A DNA stretch of 64,000 nucleotides, from IMG/VR virus record IMGVR_UViG_3300031994_000022, one strand, 5' to 3'. This DNA is from a virus. Lineage: Duplodnaviria; Caudoviricetes. Made by a program: the position numbers and the translations under genes. Position 1 is the first letter of the stretch; each line of letters begins with the position of its first letter. The notes under the pieces were generated by a model. It ran no database searches and was not told the origin of the DNA. It saw only the letters and a list, made by a program, of their open reading frames with translations. Shown in pieces: positions 45,873-55,065 of this stretch.

Positions 45873-47663
45873 TTACTTTGAAAATATTCCACCATATCTA
45901 GAAGATGACTTAGCAGCCTTCTTAGATGGATTACCAAATAGTTTCATACCAACCTGTTTCTTCTCAGGTTCTTCAGATGAAAACTCAATTTTATTGTGCT
46001 TTGAATACTCAAGCAACATTTTGTCAAGCTTATCAGTTAGCTCATCCGTAGAGAGATCGAAGTAATTCTCTCGCTTTGATAACTCGACAAATTCCTTGGT
46101 TTCTCGAATATTCTTCCAATCCTCTGACTGAAGAATTTCCTTCTTTGCTGGTTCGGACTCGTACTTTGCAAGTTTTTCCTCAATAGCAGAGTAGCTAGTT
46201 TTCATCTGTTCAAGAGCATTCTTCTCATCAGCAGATAAGAACGAAACAAATGTTTCAATTCTATCACCCTTAAGTGAATATACATCTTTCTTTACAGAAT
46301 AAGACTGACGATAGTGCTTATTATTCCACCAATCGTGGAATTCAACTATCTTAGTTTCTTCAATAACATCACAATCATACCATGCACCATCAGACTCACC
46401 GTAAGTATCATTTACAAGAATTGTAAGAGCATTCAGCTTTTCCTTGAGTGATACTGAATAATCTTTCTTTGCACCCTTAACAGACACAGTATAATTTACG
46501 GAATAGTAATTAACATCTTCTGGATCTTCGGTATTATCATCAGGTTCATCAGGTTGTTCTTCTTCCTCAGATTGTACTTCAGGAGTATCGTCTTTATCAT
46601 CAGGATTCTCATCATCGTCCTGATTTTCCTTGTCATCATCATCCTTGTCGCCATCCTCATCGTCATCGTCTTGATCCTCATCGTCAACAATTACCGAATC
46701 ATCATCTTCAGACTTCTTACGCTTTTTCGGACTATCTTCAAAGTTTTCTGTAGAAGGAGTGAAATGCTCTGCAAATACTGCTTCGAGTTCCTCATCTGAA
46801 AGTCCTTCGTACTCAAAATCAATTTCATCAATTGACTTTCCATATTGTTCTAAAAGCTTTTCAAACATTGGTTTTGGATTACCTCCTTCCTCTAGAATTT
46901 CGTTGTTTATATTAAGGTTATCTATTTTCTCGTTAAGAGCAGATAACATCTCAATAACTTTTTCATTCTGTGAGAATATACTATTATTCTCGACACTAAA
47001 GTCGGCAATTGAAATATTGCTTCCAACCATACCAGGCTTTACTTCTTCGCCTGTGTAACGATTCTCTTCAAGTATTGTGACTCCACTAAATCTAAACTTG
47101 TCTATACACAATACTTTCTCTTTAGAGTCATAAGATAATTCATCTACAAATAACTCTACACTCACAGACAATCTCTTTTCTCTTTCTATAATTTCTGCTG
47201 CTTTACTGTATGTTTTCCAAATAATACCAGTACCGTCAACATAAGTCTTATCCATATCTACATCATATACTAATTTAAGATCGGCTGATTCCGGTATACA
47301 GCCAACTGGGATTTCCTCATATACGGTTTCACCATCATCATTAACATACAACTCATGACTAGCAAAAACATCTTTCTCACCATTGTTATATATATATCCT
47401 AAGATTGGCATATTATACGCAGTAGGCAAAGCATTCTCCATAGCCTTTTCAGATATAAAACTTTGGTTGGCATTTTTCTCTGTGTGACAAAGTCTGATAG
47501 GACAATACATATTCAATTCATCATCTTCAGACTGATCATATGTAAACGGTTCATCTATATGAACTACAATGGTAGTGTCATTATCAGCAGAACTGAATTT
47601 TACATTCTTATTCTGAGTTACATAATAATTATATAAATCAGAGAGATATAAGAGTTTTTTCAC
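45873..47663 (-). CDS. Prohead protease/scaffold protein
   Basis: N-domain with H...N.N.S.I, PILG, SVE, F.GVT.L....PGM; long acidic linker; coiled-coil C-terminus; GTG start. Confidence 0.7.
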   Translation of the reverse strand: MKKLLYLSDLYNYYVTQNKNVKFSSADNDTTIVVHIDEPFTYDQSEDDELNMYCPIRLCHTEKNANQSFISEKAMENALPTAYNMPILGYIYNNGEKDVFASHELYVNDDGETVYEEIPVGCIPESADLKLVYDVDMDKTYVDGTGIIWKTYSKAAEIIEREKRLSVSVELFVDELSYDSKEKVLCIDKFRFSGVTILEENRYTGEEVKPGMVGSNISIADFSVENNSIFSQNEKVIEMLSALNEKIDNLNINNEILEEGGNPKPMFEKLLEQYGKSIDEIDFEYEGLSDEELEAVFAEHFTPSTENFEDSPKKRKKSEDDDSVIVDDEDQDDDDEDGDKDDDDKENQDDDENPDDKDDTPEVQSEEEEQPDEPDDNTEDPEDVNYYSVNYTVSVKGAKKDYSVSLKEKLNALTILVNDTYGESDGAWYDCDVIEETKIVEFHDWWNNKHYRQSYSVKKDVYSLKGDRIETFVSFLSADEKNALEQMKTSYSAIEEKLAKYESEPAKKEILQSEDWKNIRETKEFVELSKRENYFDLSTDELTDKLDKMLLEYSKHNKIEFSSEEPEKKQVGMKLFGNPSKKAAKSSSRYGGIFSK

Positions 47664-47700
47664 TTCTCCATATTCCTCCTTTCTTTAAAAATAACAAAAC

Positions 47701-47730
47701 GCAGAGCAGACCTTTTACAATCTACTCTGC
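47701..47730 (-). terminator. Terminator-like hairpin closing the RNA cluster
   Basis: GCAGAGUAGAU/GUCUGCUCUGC followed by GUUUUGUUAUUUU. Confidence 0.6.
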
Positions 47731-49398
47731 AACCGTAATCAATACGGTTCTCTCCTTATATGTGCCTCCATTGGACACTTCATTGAGAGGTGTGGAGGCT
47801 TCTGTCAAAATGACCCGACGTGGTACGCATCAAAGTGAGAGGCGTGTCGGGTTCTGTCCAATATAAAAGGAGCTGTGTGTACCAGCTCCAATTCCTCGCA
47901 ATATTGGCAGTAATTACAGTTTACTGCCGATAATTCCTTAGCGAGTCTCGGCGTTTTTCTTTTCAGATATCTGCATCCTAGTCAGGGTAAGACTGCCGCA
48001 GCTTACGGTAGAACCTCCACGTAAGAACCTGACAAACCTTACGCTTCAACGGTTAAACTTAACTAGTGAGTAATATTCTAACCGTTACTCGCGGTACGAA
48101 AATGTCACGAAAACTATATACTATTCGTGACACAATCTCAGCTCCTCCTACCAATAGGATAGGTGAGTAAGTAGATAATGCGTAGTCCCGGTGTTAACAC
48201 ATAACACTTACCACGACGGAGGCAGGATACTACGACTTACAATATCTGTCAGAGCGTACTCCACATGGAAGTCTGACAATCCCATGCTTCACAGCAGATC
48301 CGCCAATACCCAAGGGCGAAGAGTAGTTTAAGTGCTTAACTCAGGCACAAACATTTTCAAACCGACCTTTTATATTGCGGTAATCGGTCTCCGCATGGGT
48401 TCTGTTTATTTTGCAACTTTCATTTGATGGCTTATGGTAAGTTGCCACCTTTATACATCTCCACATTCACCGCATACCATCACGGATTCCGCTTCATAGA
48501 CATCTACACTTAGGCGGTGAACACCATGTATTGGCTCTGTTCTCGCTCCACTCTTGTGTCTTTACCACAGATTTAAAGTCTACACCTACGCTACTGACTA
48601 CCAATATTTTGAATCGCTAGAAGTTTTAAGTCGTCCTAAAGACCATATGGTTATCCGATATTGCAGTGTTTTACAGATTCGTCATCCAACCATATGAACA
48701 CCTCTGGAAACGTGCCTCCTCGGAATAGGGCTACACCAGTACCATTACGCACCTACGTGTTTAGGTCTTTTCGTTGACCAAATATTAAAGCGACTCGGCG
48801 CGGATCTTCACCGCCATCGTGCTAGTTATAGGGAATTCGCCTCGGTTACCAACCTTAACGCCGCTTATAATAATCCACTTTTTATTTGGAAGCGATGGGA
48901 CACTTCGTTTGAATCACTAGGAGTTTTAGGTCATCCTAAAGACCGCTCGTAATGGGTTTAATGTCTCCATACCGACAAAAAGAACGGCATTGATGCTGGC
49001 ATCGCTACCGCTGAAAAACCTTTGGCTTTTCGTTCATAATCCACCGTTGTAGCATAGGTCGTGGGACACCTACCGCACCGTTCTTGGAATTTCTTTGTTG
49101 TGGGAGTTACCCACTTCATTATTTTTCCTCACACTTCGCCGCCACACTAAATGACTATAAAGGTTCTCACTTGAATTTTAAGGTGGACGAGATATTCCAC
49201 CAGTAGAGTTATTGCGCATTACGGTAACTTCGCTTACCTCGGTACTGTCGGTTAAGGGAGCCGACTCCTATTGGATAGCTGACAACATATCACCTATTGC
49301 CGAGCTTTCATGGTATATTTAACGCCCCCCACTAGGGAAAGAGGTGCTATCCGTTGTCCTCTTATATTTTACTGCCCTATCAAAACCATCATAGGACT

Positions 49399-49502
49399 CT
49401 TCACCCGGTCAATTTTTATTTTACCGACGAGTCAGAACCGTCACTCGTCATCTTCGCTCGGTCAGTTTTTATATTACCGACGAGTCAGAACCGTCACTCG
49501 TC
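49399..49502. repeat. Two-copy tandem repeat, 53-nt period
   Basis: CTTC...CGGTCA.TTTTTAT.TTACCGACGAGTCAGAACCGTCACTCGTC at 49399-49449 and 49452-49502. Confidence 0.95.
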
Positions 49503-49571
49503 TCATCTATTATGGAATTATTTTTTGTTTTATTTGGTTGATTTGGATCATTTGCGTAATACCATTTAAAA

Positions 49572-49595
49572 AAGACGACAAATTAACGTCGTCTT
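49572..49595 (-). terminator. Terminator after the portal gene
   Basis: AAGACGAC/GTCGTCTT stem plus T-run on the minus strand. Confidence 0.7.
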
Positions 49596-49621
49596 AAAAA
49601 TATTGTTTTATTATCTAAAAG

Positions 49622-51178
49622 TTATCCTTCGCTCCTTGCCCTAGAACGTTCACCTGAATCAGATAAATCTCCTTCATCTACTTGTGGTCTTCCTTGTCCA
49701 ATTTCAGAAGTATATCCATCTTCAGTACCACTTTGGGTATAAGATGAATTTAGAGGACGAAGTTTATCACTAAGACCTAATAATTCTTCTTCTACATAAT
49801 TCATACAGATAGTGTCTTTTTCACTAAATCCATTAAGAGTATTGATAGCTAACTTAGTTGGTAATCCATACTGACCAGACGAAAGTAGCTGTTCTCTATA
49901 GTCTGACTTTGTATATGTTGAAATTGGCATAAAACGTACTTTGCAGTCATCGGCACCCTCATAACTAAGCATCCTCATTACCCAAGATTGTATTTGTGGT
50001 AGAAGAGAAGAGATGGCAAATTCTGTGTTGGCAATGGTAGCCATCTTAAATGCATAAGTATTATTGATGGTAGCACCATTAAGTATTTCAGCACCACCAG
50101 CCGTATTTAGTACTTGCTCTGTAGCTTTAGCAACTTTAGTAGTATCAGTTGCTTTATCATCACCAAAGCTTATTTCATGCAATTGTCCAGGAACAATGGC
50201 AGTAGCTATATAATCCGGAATACTATCATTAAGCTTATCAAAATATGGTAATGAAAGATCCGGGTCGATTTTCCAATCGTCTATTCGCTTCGATCCGGTT
50301 ATGGTTTCTAATTCGTACCACAGAAGCTTGTATACGCTCGCAGCATCCCCCGCTGCTTGAATGTCCTCAAGGTCTGCAAGATTTATAATACTATTAAATA
50401 TACCGCTCCAGGGACTGACTATTACATCCAAATCTTCAATTCTAAACTTCATACAAACTTGATACTTAGAATCTATCAGTTGCCACTTTTCACCAGTGCT
50501 TTGATAATTTTTCCAAACATCTTCAAATACTTCTGGTATATATTCAATAAGTTCTTGTCTATTTCTTAGCCATGAGGCATCAAAAAAATAAGACAGATCA
50601 CCTGTCATAAATTTTCCAGCTATCTTACAATAATCAGCTGGTAATTGCATATGAAATACCCCAGTATCATCATGAATATAGATACCATAATAAATATCTT
50701 GAACAAAACAAGTAAATATTATTGGATAAAATTCCTGCTGTAATCTCATTATTGAAACTGCATCAAGAGTATTTTGATAAGATTTCATTATCTTATCAGC
50801 ATTATTTTCTTTGACTAAATCATATTTAGGAATAATGCTTCGACAATCTAAACAAAACATTTCACTAAAGAAATGAACAATCCTATAAAATACATGAGAC
50901 CTATACAGAAGGTACCAGGCTAACGCTCGCAAATTCTTTTCTTGAGATCCGATATTTTGTAAATATTGTCTTAATCTTTCTTTATCAAAAGTAGTAATTG
51001 TTTTATTATAAGTCTTACCAATATCTCTTAATTGTTTAAGCATCTTATCTTTATTTTCAGTAGCAAAATTTGTAACCATATCTAAACGGTCTTTATTTTT
51101 GCTATACCAATCTTTTATTTCAGCCACTGTCGGCTGTTTAGGTGCATTCGACACCTGTGTAGTCTTTGTTCGTGCCAA
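49622..51178 (-). CDS. Portal protein
   Basis: Follows terminase; LP.DYCKI, PL.SSYTQS and GRP motifs seen in SPbeta-like portals. Confidence 0.8.
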   Translation of the reverse strand: MARTKTTQVSNAPKQPTVAEIKDWYSKNKDRLDMVTNFATENKDKMLKQLRDIGKTYNKTITTFDKERLRQYLQNIGSQEKNLRALAWYLLYRSHVFYRIVHFFSEMFCLDCRSIIPKYDLVKENNADKIMKSYQNTLDAVSIMRLQQEFYPIIFTCFVQDIYYGIYIHDDTGVFHMQLPADYCKIAGKFMTGDLSYFFDASWLRNRQELIEYIPEVFEDVWKNYQSTGEKWQLIDSKYQVCMKFRIEDLDVIVSPWSGIFNSIINLADLEDIQAAGDAASVYKLLWYELETITGSKRIDDWKIDPDLSLPYFDKLNDSIPDYIATAIVPGQLHEISFGDDKATDTTKVAKATEQVLNTAGGAEILNGATINNTYAFKMATIANTEFAISSLLPQIQSWVMRMLSYEGADDCKVRFMPISTYTKSDYREQLLSSGQYGLPTKLAINTLNGFSEKDTICMNYVEEELLGLSDKLRPLNSSYTQSGTEDGYTSEIGQGRPQVDEGDLSDSGERSRARSEG

Positions 51179-51190
51179 GTCGCACCTCCT

Positions 51191-53236
51191 TTATCTGCCC
51201 ACTATTTTTGCTGGGCGAATTGTTAATTTATCTAAAAGATAATTTGAAGATACTTTTGGCTTCTGAAGAAGCAACTTACGTCTTTCCTCAGCCAATGCGT
51301 GTCCAAGCATACAACAAGTATAGGCACGGTCGTCATGCATTTTATTAGCTTTTTCTGGGGTTAACTCAAAAGAGTCCTTACCGGATTCCCTTTTCTTTCT
51401 CACCATATTAACCAATTCTTCTTTCAAAGCATCGATATTTGCTAAAGCAATTTTATCTTTCCAATCCAACTTTATAGTTTTAGTATTAACCGATTGTACC
51501 TTACCTAATTCTTCTTGTAATTTATCTTCAAATTCTTTTTCATTTAGTTTTTTCTTTTTTAATTCTTCAATTATTCTTCCACGTTCTTTGTCTAATTTCT
51601 TCTGGTCAATATCAAATACAGTAAGATATTCTTTATTATCATATGTACTTGTGAAACCAATCTTATCTTGATTAAGCATTTCTATTAGTGCTTCATACAT
51701 CATCGATTTAAATTTAGCCGGTTCCATAAGATGAACCTTGTCCACCGCATTTGGGAATCTACCAACATAATCAGCAGAGTATTCTTTATCTATTAATCCT
51801 CTATGAATAATACCATCAGAAGTTTCCCAATCTGGCATCAAGTAATCGGCTATGTTCACACCGCCTCCTCCCGTACCAGCATCAATCCAAATACCGACAA
51901 TATTTTCATATGCATCAGCACCAGCGTTGTAATCAAGAATCATTTGTTTTAAATATTCAATCTGATCAGGCGTTCTCATAGGACTCTTGATTCGTTTACC
52001 GACATCCAAAAGATTAACACCATTAACAATCTTTGCTCTTTTATCAATGCTTCCATCTACTTGTATAAAATCATAAAACTCAGCCACAAGTATAAATGAG
52101 TTATCCACCTTACGAGCAGGGTCATAAAATAACCCATATTTCTTATCACCAGTTTCATTACAATGAATTGGCTTTCGAGTTTCCTCATTACGAGTAATAA
52201 CACCACGTTTTACAATGGCATCCGAACCAGCTTCTGTTGTAAATTGACAGTAATACTCGCGCCTCGCCTTTTCTGGATTTGTTCTCATTTCAGATTCGAC
52301 AGTAGAGCGAGAGAGTAGTGGAGCAATAACTTCACCATGTAATGTCGGTTTGAATGCGAGTTCACAATCAATGTGAAGAACACAATAATCTGGGTCTCCC
52401 ATAATCTGACGTTTAGCAAAATCTCTATATAAAGAATAAAACTTTGTATCAGTAGAAGATGCACTACTAATATAAAACTTTTGGTTTGGTATATCTGTGG
52501 CAAACGTTCTTTGTCTAATAGGGTCAATAGAACGACCACTTGCATCTTTACCAGTCTTTAAGCTTTTATTTACAATAGCAAACGCCGAATATACATTCAT
52601 CATTTCTTCCGATAAAAAACCGCTTTCATCGAAGATTACGTTTCCTCTCATTCCTCTCTTTTTATCTATATTACTGTTGAGCGTCTGAGTCATCGACCCA
52701 TTATAGACTTCGTAATTGAATCCATTAGAAGAATGACTAAAACCATCGCCAGCTGCATTTTTGATTTTTATTTCATCTTTAAATATTTTTCCTGTAGAAC
52801 CTGCAAAGGTATCTATGTTATCATTTGCAATACGTTCGAGCGTTGTGAAAGTTTGTTCTGCCTGAGAACCAGATCCTGAAGCAATATATGTCCAATAATT
52901 ACAGAAACACATGTCCTTCATCATGGTTTCTAAATCTATAACTGTTGATTTTCCCCAACCTCGAGTCGCAACGATTAATACATTTGGACAATTCCATGAA
53001 CGCTGTACTGCTAAAGCTTGAGAATCCAAAAGTTCAATATTAAACCAAAAATCTATACCAGCTACGGGATTACATTGAAAATATTTCTGCATCATCGCAA
53101 TAGCCTGTAACGCTTCAATTTTTCTCGTAGACATAGGATAATCAATTGGCTTTACAAATATTCCATAATCTTTATAGAAATCTTTATCATATTGCAAATC
53201 ATAATCAAAACTATTCGGTGTCCATATCTGACTCAT
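51191..53236 (-). CDS. terL: Terminase large subunit
   Basis: Walker A ATRGWGKS, Walker B VIFDE, ISSA, nuclease YDPAR..DNS, IDAGTGGGG, HDDRAY. Confidence 0.9.
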   Translation of the reverse strand: MSQIWTPNSFDYDLQYDKDFYKDYGIFVKPIDYPMSTRKIEALQAIAMMQKYFQCNPVAGIDFWFNIELLDSQALAVQRSWNCPNVLIVATRGWGKSTVIDLETMMKDMCFCNYWTYIASGSGSQAEQTFTTLERIANDNIDTFAGSTGKIFKDEIKIKNAAGDGFSHSSNGFNYEVYNGSMTQTLNSNIDKKRGMRGNVIFDESGFLSEEMMNVYSAFAIVNKSLKTGKDASGRSIDPIRQRTFATDIPNQKFYISSASSTDTKFYSLYRDFAKRQIMGDPDYCVLHIDCELAFKPTLHGEVIAPLLSRSTVESEMRTNPEKARREYYCQFTTEAGSDAIVKRGVITRNEETRKPIHCNETGDKKYGLFYDPARKVDNSFILVAEFYDFIQVDGSIDKRAKIVNGVNLLDVGKRIKSPMRTPDQIEYLKQMILDYNAGADAYENIVGIWIDAGTGGGGVNIADYLMPDWETSDGIIHRGLIDKEYSADYVGRFPNAVDKVHLMEPAKFKSMMYEALIEMLNQDKIGFTSTYDNKEYLTVFDIDQKKLDKERGRIIEELKKKKLNEKEFEDKLQEELGKVQSVNTKTIKLDWKDKIALANIDALKEELVNMVRKKRESGKDSFELTPEKANKMHDDRAYTCCMLGHALAEERRKLLLQKPKVSSNYLLDKLTIRPAKIVGR

Positions 53237-54787: not shown

Positions 54788-54859
54788 TAGCAGGGGTAGG
54801 AATTGCACCCACAACCTCCGGAGCATGAATCCGGCAAACGTCTGTCGTTATGCCCTGCG
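54788..54859 (-). tRNA. Atypical tRNA-Met(CAU), initiator-like
   Basis: Acceptor GCAGGG/CCCUGC with unpaired C1; anticodon arm CCGGA-UUCAUGC-UCCGG; T-arm GUGGG-UGCAAUU-CCUAC; D-loop short and lacking GG; no encoded CCA. Confidence 0.7.
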
Positions 54860-54994: not shown

Positions 54995-55065
54995 TTGAAA
55001 ATGTAGGATTCGAACCTCGCCCCTACAGCCCAAGTGTAGTGTGCTACCATTACACCACATTCTCA
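54995..55065 (-). tRNA. Atypical tRNA-Pro(UGG)-like gene
   Basis: D-arm GUGU-AAUGGUA-GCAC; anticodon arm CUACA-CUUGGGC-UGUAG; GGUUCGAAUCC T-loop with only a 3-bp T-stem; no encoded CCA. Confidence 0.65.

Follow-up and report, generated by a model that had tools for sequence, protein, structure and literature searches.

What does a rumen phage keep in almost 2 kb of DNA between two genes of its head region, when that DNA itself holds no gene? The question is raised by IMG/VR virus record IMGVR_UViG_3300031994_000022 (Duplodnaviria; Caudoviricetes), in which the portal gene and the next gene, for a 596-amino acid (aa) head-region protein, are separated by a gene-free gap of 1958 base pairs (bp; 47664-49621). 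The window referred to below is the whole 64,000-nucleotide (nt) stretch of this virus, and all units described in it lie on the sense strand of the gap, which is the window's minus strand.

At least four types of unit within this tract appear, from their sequences, to be toxin-less copies of RNAs that stand directly upstream of nuclease toxin genes in Clostridia, the likely host class, with a promoter before them and a terminator after. The putative cognates are TenpN for a tenpI-like unit, CptN for a cptI-like unit, and AbiF/Abi_2 for a double abiF-type unit, with the PBECR4 RNase as a candidate partner of drum-like units. That the tract is built as a mosaic of units, and that several of these have homology to toxin-linked RNAs, is close to certain. 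Beyond this, we consider it probable, with some margin for doubt, that the tract is a multi-family array of decoy antitoxins that would blunt several host nuclease toxins.

Antitoxin-like units and their bacterial counterparts

An explicit, strict scan for type III-like pseudoknots returns three in the tract, compared with 0.44 +/- 0.59 in shuffled sequences and 0-1 in coding controls. The tenpI-like unit, U1 (49369-49508), contains two 53-nt repeats (49502-49450 and 49449-49397) that are 92% identical, followed by a divergent third repeat that begins at 49396 and continues into the adjoining unit U2a. The repeats follow a common plan, combining a hairpin and an A-rich linker with a GACCG complementary to the loop and with GAAGAT or GAAGAG at the junction, and a pseudoknot scan predicts that repeat 2 (49450-49406) can form an H-type pseudoknot whose A-rich loop is long. 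When the tract was compared by BLAST with 399 Clostridia genomes, window positions 49506-49451 aligned over 56 nt, at 93% identity, with an RNA of bacterial locus L096. There the RNA is followed by a terminator and then by a TenpN gene (NCBIfam NF047358), which a frameshift splits into two fragments (E 1e-21 and 5e-25) that were recognized by NCBIfam only and missed by PADLOC and Pfam. Nine TenpN loci are present in 300 Clostridia genomes, and the eight with a readable upstream region carry two to three repeats of ~50 nt with the plan of U1 and the GAAGAT junction.

Repeat size and number in U1 also lie inside the published range for tenpI, which is 39-57 nt and 1.9-3.0 copies (PMC3401426, Table 2). 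U1 thus shares with the tenpI antitoxins of TenpIN systems (PMC3401426, PMC12283969, PMC13682666) its 53-nt repeats in two to three copies, some of them non-identical, as well as the hairpin, the A-rich linker, the predicted H-type pseudoknot, and the retained GAAGAT junction. It differs from them in having neither a sigma-70 promoter nor a dedicated terminator to frame the repeats, and no TenpN gene downstream. A tblastn search of the window and of all phage loci gave no TenpN, which makes U1 an orphan RNA.

The cptI-like unit is a 45-nt H-type pseudoknot (48401-48357) within U7 (48411-48298), a length inside the 40-48 nt of cptI units. Ungapped, it agrees at 28/45 positions with the CptI repeat published for E. 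rectale (PMC4627078, Table 2), including the blocks GACCGAU, AUAUAAA, GGUCGG, and UUGA. S1 retains its four pairs, three by double changes, and conservation is seen in S2, in the A-rich L2, and in the 3' tail. After the pseudoknot comes the junction AAATGTTTG, as found between the repeats of cptI arrays. A search pattern made from the blocks common to U7 and CptI led to a canonical CptIN locus, in which a pair of 45-nt repeats is followed by a terminator and by a toxin that matches CptN (E 4e-51) and PDB 4RMO (E 2e-71). The pseudoknot plan of U7 recurs at 12 CptN loci, and three of these (L130, L131, and L137) have the AAATGTTTG junction too. Set beside CptI of the E. rectale CptIN system (PDB 4RMO, PMC4627078), U7 has the same pseudoknot type and length, the same S2 strands (ACCGAU and GGUCGG), the A-rich L2 (AUAUAAA), the UUGA tail, and the array junction AAAUGUUUG beyond that tail; it departs from CptI in being a single copy, as opposed to 1.9-3.4 tandem repeats, in its different 5' tail, and in that no CptN gene is seen in the gap. 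With no sense-strand open reading frame (ORF) above 53 aa, the gap has no room for CptN, although no CptN protein search was made of the phage DNA. A plain BLAST match of U7 to bacterial DNA was discarded, as it fell inside an ORF.

U12 (47764-47851) consists of two tandem abiF-type hairpins (47851-47813 and 47799-47764). Hairpin 1 is 82-94% identical, with its flanks ACAGAA and UCAUUU included, to RNAs in ~20 of the 399 Clostridia genomes, and in five of the six loci examined these homologues have a sigma-70 promoter in front and an Abi_2 (PF07751) gene directly behind. Bacterial and phage copies near-identical to hairpin 1 pass the threshold of the abiF model RF03085 (39.6 bits at L098 and 44.4 bits at L019). 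Hairpin 2 has the flank and the CAC-R-CCUCUCA loop in common with hairpin 1, but different stems, and 6 of 23 pairs covary among the phage copies of U12.

The layout of U12, with motif starts at 47851 and 47799, ~52 nt apart, and then a terminator at 47731-47700, is of the type seen in RCd22 of C. difficile prophage phi027, whose motifs, at 9-41 and 61-95, precede a terminator, and which binds and neutralizes AbiF in cis as well as in trans (bioRxiv 10.1101/2025.04.15.648962). Common to U12 and RCd22 (abiF motif, RF03085) are the two hairpins at a spacing of ~52-55 nt and the Rho-independent terminator that follows. Unlike RCd22, U12 has no abiF/Abi_2 gene downstream, the next gene being the head-region gene, and the Rfam model gives hairpin 1 less than its gathering score and does not recognize hairpin 2 (scores are given below). 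At another locus, L119 (1492-2547), an abiF RNA 94% identical to hairpin 1 precedes a RhuM-family (PF13310) gene and not Abi_2.

Two further units resemble drum RNA (RF02958, gathering score 43 bits). Drum-like RNA #1 (48054-47946) scores 37.9 bits (E 6e-05 in 2.5 kb and 0.0015 in 64 kb) and has copies in at least eight relatives of the phage. Drum-like RNA #2 (48502-48409), which forms the 3' part of U6 (48607-48412), scores 26.4 bits (E 0.03) and is 81-86% identical to two bacterial elements, one at L097 that scores exactly the gathering value (43.0 bits) and one at L095 (41.6 bits); each immediately precedes a PBECR4 (PF18813) gene, of which one is truncated. The alignments of both units cover the drum model over its whole length. 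The first is followed by U11 (47869-47945), a hairpin and a Rho-independent terminator-like hairpin (47889-47869) at the usual position of the drum terminator; the second has no terminator of its own. The full-length alignments, the terminator after #1, and the bacterial homologues of #2 at the gathering threshold are what the units share with drum (PMC5737381), and their own scores are what sets them apart. Alignment of 17 phage and bacterial drum copies with MAFFT, which is not structure-aware, gave no consensus structure in RNAalifold; support for the drum-like fold comes from the Infernal alignments only. Bacterial matches to the 3' part of drum-like RNA #1 were discarded, as they lay inside ORFs.

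At six Clostridia loci, a terminator and a ribosome-binding site separate drum from a PBECR4 RNase gene downstream (L070 845-1614 minus, L071 313-1066 plus, L093 1320-1427 plus, L097 735-1577 minus, L095 1215-1577 minus, and L146 1501-2200 minus). In a sample of 151 genomes, drum occurs in four and PBECR4 in five, with three in common. This layout is that of a type III toxin-antitoxin pair, and drum may serve as an antitoxin or regulator of PBECR4. PBECR4 is unrecognized by PADLOC, no link between drum and PBECR4 was found in the literature searched, and Weinberg et al. in 2017 noted for drum only an association with nearby proteins and a 3' terminator (PMC5737381). We offer the possible drum-PBECR4 pairing as a new lead from this analysis.

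Unit content of the site among related phages

Relatives were gathered through the portal protein in IMG/VR, from metagenome contigs, and through the conserved pattern of one unit, giving ~20 distinct related contigs, mostly from rumen samples, that carry different subsets and orders of units. BLAST of the tract against the close relatives resolves blocks of 75-98% identity with sharp ends, each present, absent, or reordered depending on the phage, and from these breakpoints we delimited ~13 units, U1 to U13. All are on the sense strand. The distance from the portal gene to the next gene ranges from 176 to >2200 bp among relatives as a whole and from 660 to >2200 bp in phages with a portal identity of at least 71%; where portals are 80-97% identical, the arrays measure 660-2280 bp and differ in units and in order. 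Among the phages examined, homologues of TenpN, Abi_2, and PBECR4 are found neither in the window nor in any related phage locus, and blastn of the tract against GenBank phages gave no match.

More distant relatives (portal identity 46-59%), including a prophage in Ruminococcus sp. AM36-2AA, have only an ORF of 53-59 aa at this site, to which some add a GIY-YIG homing endonuclease. The small protein is conserved between the portal and the next gene in L021, L026, L028, L032, L035, and L056 (e.g., MDNKKFIITTN...) and absent from the window. GIY-YIG endonucleases occupy the portal/head-gene junction in L038 (6087-7115), L007 (5223-6035), and L025 (6270-7235), and the window itself retains, directly before the array at 49591-49523, a 23-aa remnant of a GIY-YIG C terminus (tblastn 56% identity, E 0.001, to the 343-aa ORF of L038), which is overlapped by a terminator-like hairpin after the portal gene (49572-49595). 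This remnant, together with the variability of the site, leads us to regard it as a hot spot of insertion and recombination.

Remaining units, sequence features, and neighboring genes

More than half of the tract is made up of units for which we found no toxin-linked counterpart (U2a, U2b, U2c, U3, U4, U5, U8, and U9). The largest of these, U2b (49035-49271), is a genuine structured RNA of ~240 nt outside the known families, and its role may be unrelated to decoys. It has eight helices, GNRA-capped hairpins, and a variable insert (49137-49103). Across 16 sequences, 96.6% of cells are paired, compared with 31-51% when the partners are slid, and 16 of 48 pairs show double changes, compared with 2-5 in the slid controls. 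A likely pseudoknot joins CCAC with GUGG, and columns 227/247 read A-U, U-A, or G-C; apart from one pseudoknot pair, the covariation scan over all columns was too noisy. U2b has no Rfam match and none in Clostridia, whether by pattern search in 401 genomes or by BLAST in 399. It does occur in L084, a 130-kb IMG/VR phage contig, where it lies between transfer RNAs (tRNAs), near a transfer-messenger RNA (tmRNA) and a ROOL RNA of 287 bits, and where a homologue of drum-like RNA #2 is likewise found between two tRNAs. The whole RNA island of L084 (269-6487, minus) holds at least 11 tRNAs, the tmRNA, ROOL, the drum-like RNA, and the 240-nt U2b. In being non-coding structured RNAs of rumen or Firmicute phages, and through the co-occurrence of U2b with ROOL and tRNAs in L084, the units recall ROOL (RF03087) and GOLLD (RF01998), but the tract matches neither in sequence or structure and is not one large RNA, its largest unit being ~240 nt.

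U2b is flanked by U2a (49272-49368), a 97-nt unit common to nine relatives, and by U2c (48978-49034), two hairpins followed by a U-run. U3 (48901-48977) comprises two compact H-type pseudoknots (48977-48952 and 48944-48918) with a UUAAAC or UAAAAC linker, and its pseudoknot core recurs 300 nt downstream as U3' (48608-48644), which is 89% identical and differs from it by C/U changes that keep the pairing as G-U. The BLAST search of Clostridia returned no bacterial match to U3, and the U3 and U7 patterns, when run against IMG/VR, returned the same phage clade only. U4 (48781-48900) is common only to L001 and L081, the 135-nt U5 (48646-48780) to L002, L004, L012, and L076, and U8 (48178-48297) to L001, L081, and L083. 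Bacterial BLAST matches to U8, and one of two to the U2c/U3 junction, were discarded because they lay inside ORFs. U9 (48096-48177) has two hairpins, the second of which (48133-48101) is terminator-like; this hairpin also bears a marginal resemblance, over 22 nt, to a palindrome upstream of AbiEi-like DUF6088 genes (L113 1478-1515 and L114 1538-1575). The last unit, U13 (47690-47755), is a hairpin followed by the strong terminator-like hairpin at 47731-47700 (z -5), with 10 of 19 pairs covarying, and the latter is placed immediately ahead of the 596-aa gene's ribosome-binding site.

The original prediction had looked to covariation among homologous intergenic regions. This is present in U2b, U12, and U13, and compensatory changes are also seen in U7; in U2a, however, the predicted fold is accompanied by one-sided changes only, and the drum copies yielded no consensus structure in the alignment described above. 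U2a, U4, U5, U8, and U9 are too alike among relatives for a test of structure.

Most of what that prediction had read from the letters themselves stands. The gap is by far the longest gene-free stretch of the window, its longest ORFs being 53 aa on the minus (sense) strand and 95 aa on the plus strand, and it is richer in G and C than its flanks (0.40-0.47 vs 0.30-0.39). Three terminator-like hairpins are found on the minus strand where it had placed them (49595-49572, 47889-47869, and 47731-47700). The duplicated motifs are real, with 52-nt copies spaced by 53 nt, 37-nt copies spaced by 300 nt, and a pair of hairpins at 47851-47764, and the GCGG/CCGC-type H-type pseudoknot described near 48361-48394 was recovered by our scan at ~48395-48364, within U7. 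Neither a tRNA nor a tmRNA was found in the gap, nor any intron of group I or group II. The tract was said, in addition, to be nearly continuously foldable, which does not hold: in 150-nt windows, the mean minimum free energy z-score is -0.91 in the gap vs -0.67 in the coding flanks, and only 48000-47626 is clearly exceptional (z -3 to -5.5). We therefore rejected these z-scores as a marker of the tract, since they do not separate it from coding DNA except at its 3' end.

Nor does the assumed absence of Rfam families hold in full. At gathering thresholds nothing is found in the gap, but a permissive search returns three sub-threshold matches, all on the minus strand (two to drum and one to abiF), and the novelty that would follow from a lack of matches thus applies to some units, such as the 240-nt U2b, and not to those that resemble tenpI, cptI, abiF, and drum RNAs. 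For ROOL, GOLLD, and the prohead RNA (pRNA), there is no match in 47400-49900 even at E <= 10, in a search whose positive control, the ROOL RNA of L084, was detected at 287 bits.

Every gene in this region of the window is on the minus strand. Upstream of the gap are the terminase (51191-53236, minus; phrog_2) and the portal gene (49622-51178, minus; phrog_2739, E 4e-79), and downstream is the 596-aa head-region gene (45873-47663, minus), which belongs to phrog_3313 and has no assignment in Pfam, NCBIfam, or PDB, leaving the earlier label of a scaffold gene without support. Farther upstream of the terminase region, at 54788-54859 and 54995-55065 (both minus), a tRNA-like sequence (28.4 bits vs a 29-bit threshold) adjoins a tRNA-Pro. 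In the relative L019, the abiF RNA of 44.4 bits adjoins a tRNA at a place equivalent to this tRNA-Pro site.

A probable decoy array and its alternatives

In type III systems, the toxin itself processes the antitoxin precursor into units, and it is inhibited by one unit provided in trans (PMC4627078, PMC13682666). Such toxins are released once host transcription stops. In the mechanism that we propose, infection would shut off host transcription, upon which labile host antitoxin RNAs would decay and the toxins would abort the infection. A phage transcript, presumed to run through the array, would supply look-alike RNAs, from which type III toxins would cut out their own units at the retained junctions, GAAGAU in U1 and AAAUG in U7. 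The released phage RNAs would bind the toxins and hold them inactive, such that one locus could blunt several abortive-infection systems.

Pectobacterium phage PhiTE is known to escape ToxIN via a pseudo-ToxI RNA (PMC3475682). In both cases the phage RNA comes without a toxin and resembles a host type III antitoxin repeat, and here too it would neutralize a host endoribonuclease after the shut-off of host transcription. PhiTE, however, involves one family, effective via expansion or recombination in laboratory escape mutants, whereas the present locus is natural, is known from sequence, and brings together at least four families and further structured RNAs, as cassettes shuffled across the lineage. 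Antitoxin RNA mimicry was thus already known, but a natural multi-family cassette array is not described in the literature searched, and a phage counter-defense review of November 2026 lists only protein inhibitors for type III systems. Of the roles suggested in the original prediction, a polycistronic RNA array agrees with the mosaic of independent units, and a decoy against host defense fits four unit types that are homologous, or equivalent in architecture, to RNAs preceding TenpN, CptN, Abi_2, and PBECR4 genes.

One bacterial genome, G361, carries three of the putative targets together, namely TenpIN (the 93% match, L096, C243), CptIN (L138, C157), and drum-PBECR4 (L146, C127). It may be close to the host of the phage; no related prophage was found in it.

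Several observations weigh against a decoy role. A search for the portal protein in the genomes that gave the best antitoxin matches was negative, leaving no prophage link to a host. No sigma-70-like promoter was found before the array, the terminator-like hairpin at 49595-49572 stands directly 3' of the portal gene, and the array is situated within a late structural operon, most anti-defense genes being early. U1 is present only in this window among the phages examined. The plain-sequence match of U7 is weak, 28/45 being reached by 2 of 300 shuffles, and U7 is a single copy, as opposed to the two or more repeats of cptI arrays. Hairpin 1 of U12 reaches 32.1 bits vs a gathering score of 37 for RF03085, hairpin 2 draws no Rfam report even at E <= 10, and both drum-like units are under their gathering score as well. 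The type III-like layout of drum and PBECR4 is a matter of genomic context only. To these can be added the large part of the tract without toxin-linked counterparts and the location of U2b in the tRNA/ROOL island of L084, which suggests a different biology for that unit. We advance only tentatively the stronger version of the idea, in which the array would be an RNA island of anti-defense cassettes, reshuffled at the homing-endonuclease hot spot, every unit would be a decoy for a different RNA-controlled host nuclease, U2b, U3, U2a, U5, and U8 would mark undiscovered RNA-toxin families, and drum-PBECR4 would be a type III-like system; this is possible, though doubtful.

The same observations can be accommodated in part by a general stable-RNA island of the tRNA/tmRNA/ROOL/GOLLD type, whose processed units would have translation-related or other roles and in which the antitoxin-like units would be mere passengers. 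In L084, U2b and the drum-like unit are indeed placed directly between tRNAs, beside tmRNA and ROOL, the abiF motif adjoins a tRNA in L019, and ROOL and GOLLD are found near tRNAs and in prophages (Weinberg et al., PMC5737381). The units without toxin-linked counterparts, which exceed half of the tract, and the complex covarying fold of U2b, typical of sophisticated RNA functions, point the same way. We nevertheless regard this alternative as unlikely. The array in the window has no tRNA, four of its unit types have specific toxin-linked counterparts in bacteria, some of them 90-94% identical, and the clustering of antitoxin types without their toxins would be left unexplained. A stable-RNA island and a decoy array could, however, both be true of the tract.

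A more skeptical view is that the hot spot has gathered functionless debris, made up of pieces of toxin-antitoxin loci from bacteria or prophages along with other DNA. No fragment of a toxin gene was found in ~20 arrays, however, and every unit has the sense orientation. Relatives with portal proteins ~20% different retain the units intact, U2b, U7, U12, and U13 show compensatory changes, and a useless 2 kb is rarely kept in a packed structural operon. We therefore judge this account improbable, even though GIY-YIG endonucleases at the site in relatives, the 23-aa remnant in the window, the strong variability of content among relatives (U1 being unique to the window), and the degraded Abi_2 and PBECR4 genes beside intact RNAs in bacteria (L100, L101, L093, and L095) would be in keeping with it.

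One large RNA or a structured 5' leader, acting in cis on the head gene or, as the original prediction had suggested from position, in prohead assembly or packaging like the phi29 pRNA, is very improbable despite the sense-strand location between portal and head-region genes and the strong hairpin that immediately precedes the 596-aa gene's ribosome-binding site, because close relatives with 80-97% identical portals have units present, absent, or reordered, which contradicts a single giant RNA, distant relatives carry only the small ORF at a site that also takes GIY-YIG genes, two of the units recur in the tRNA/tmRNA/ROOL island of L084, pRNA, ROOL, and GOLLD have no match at E <= 10, and the tract, split by internal terminator-like hairpins, shows no long-range pairing between units.

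An array of antitoxin decoys thus remains the explanation that we favor. Antitoxin RNA mimicry was previously known from one laboratory case, the pseudo-ToxI of PhiTE. If the tract acts as proposed, phages would counter abortive infection with multiplexed RNA decoys, antitoxin decoys would travel as cassettes, and gene-free gaps in phage genomes could be read as catalogues of the RNA-controlled defenses of their hosts, with candidate hosts to be inferred from near-identical antitoxins. Drum, which had been without a function since 2017, gains a lead in PBECR4, and rumen phages gain a 240-nt covarying RNA that is common to them.

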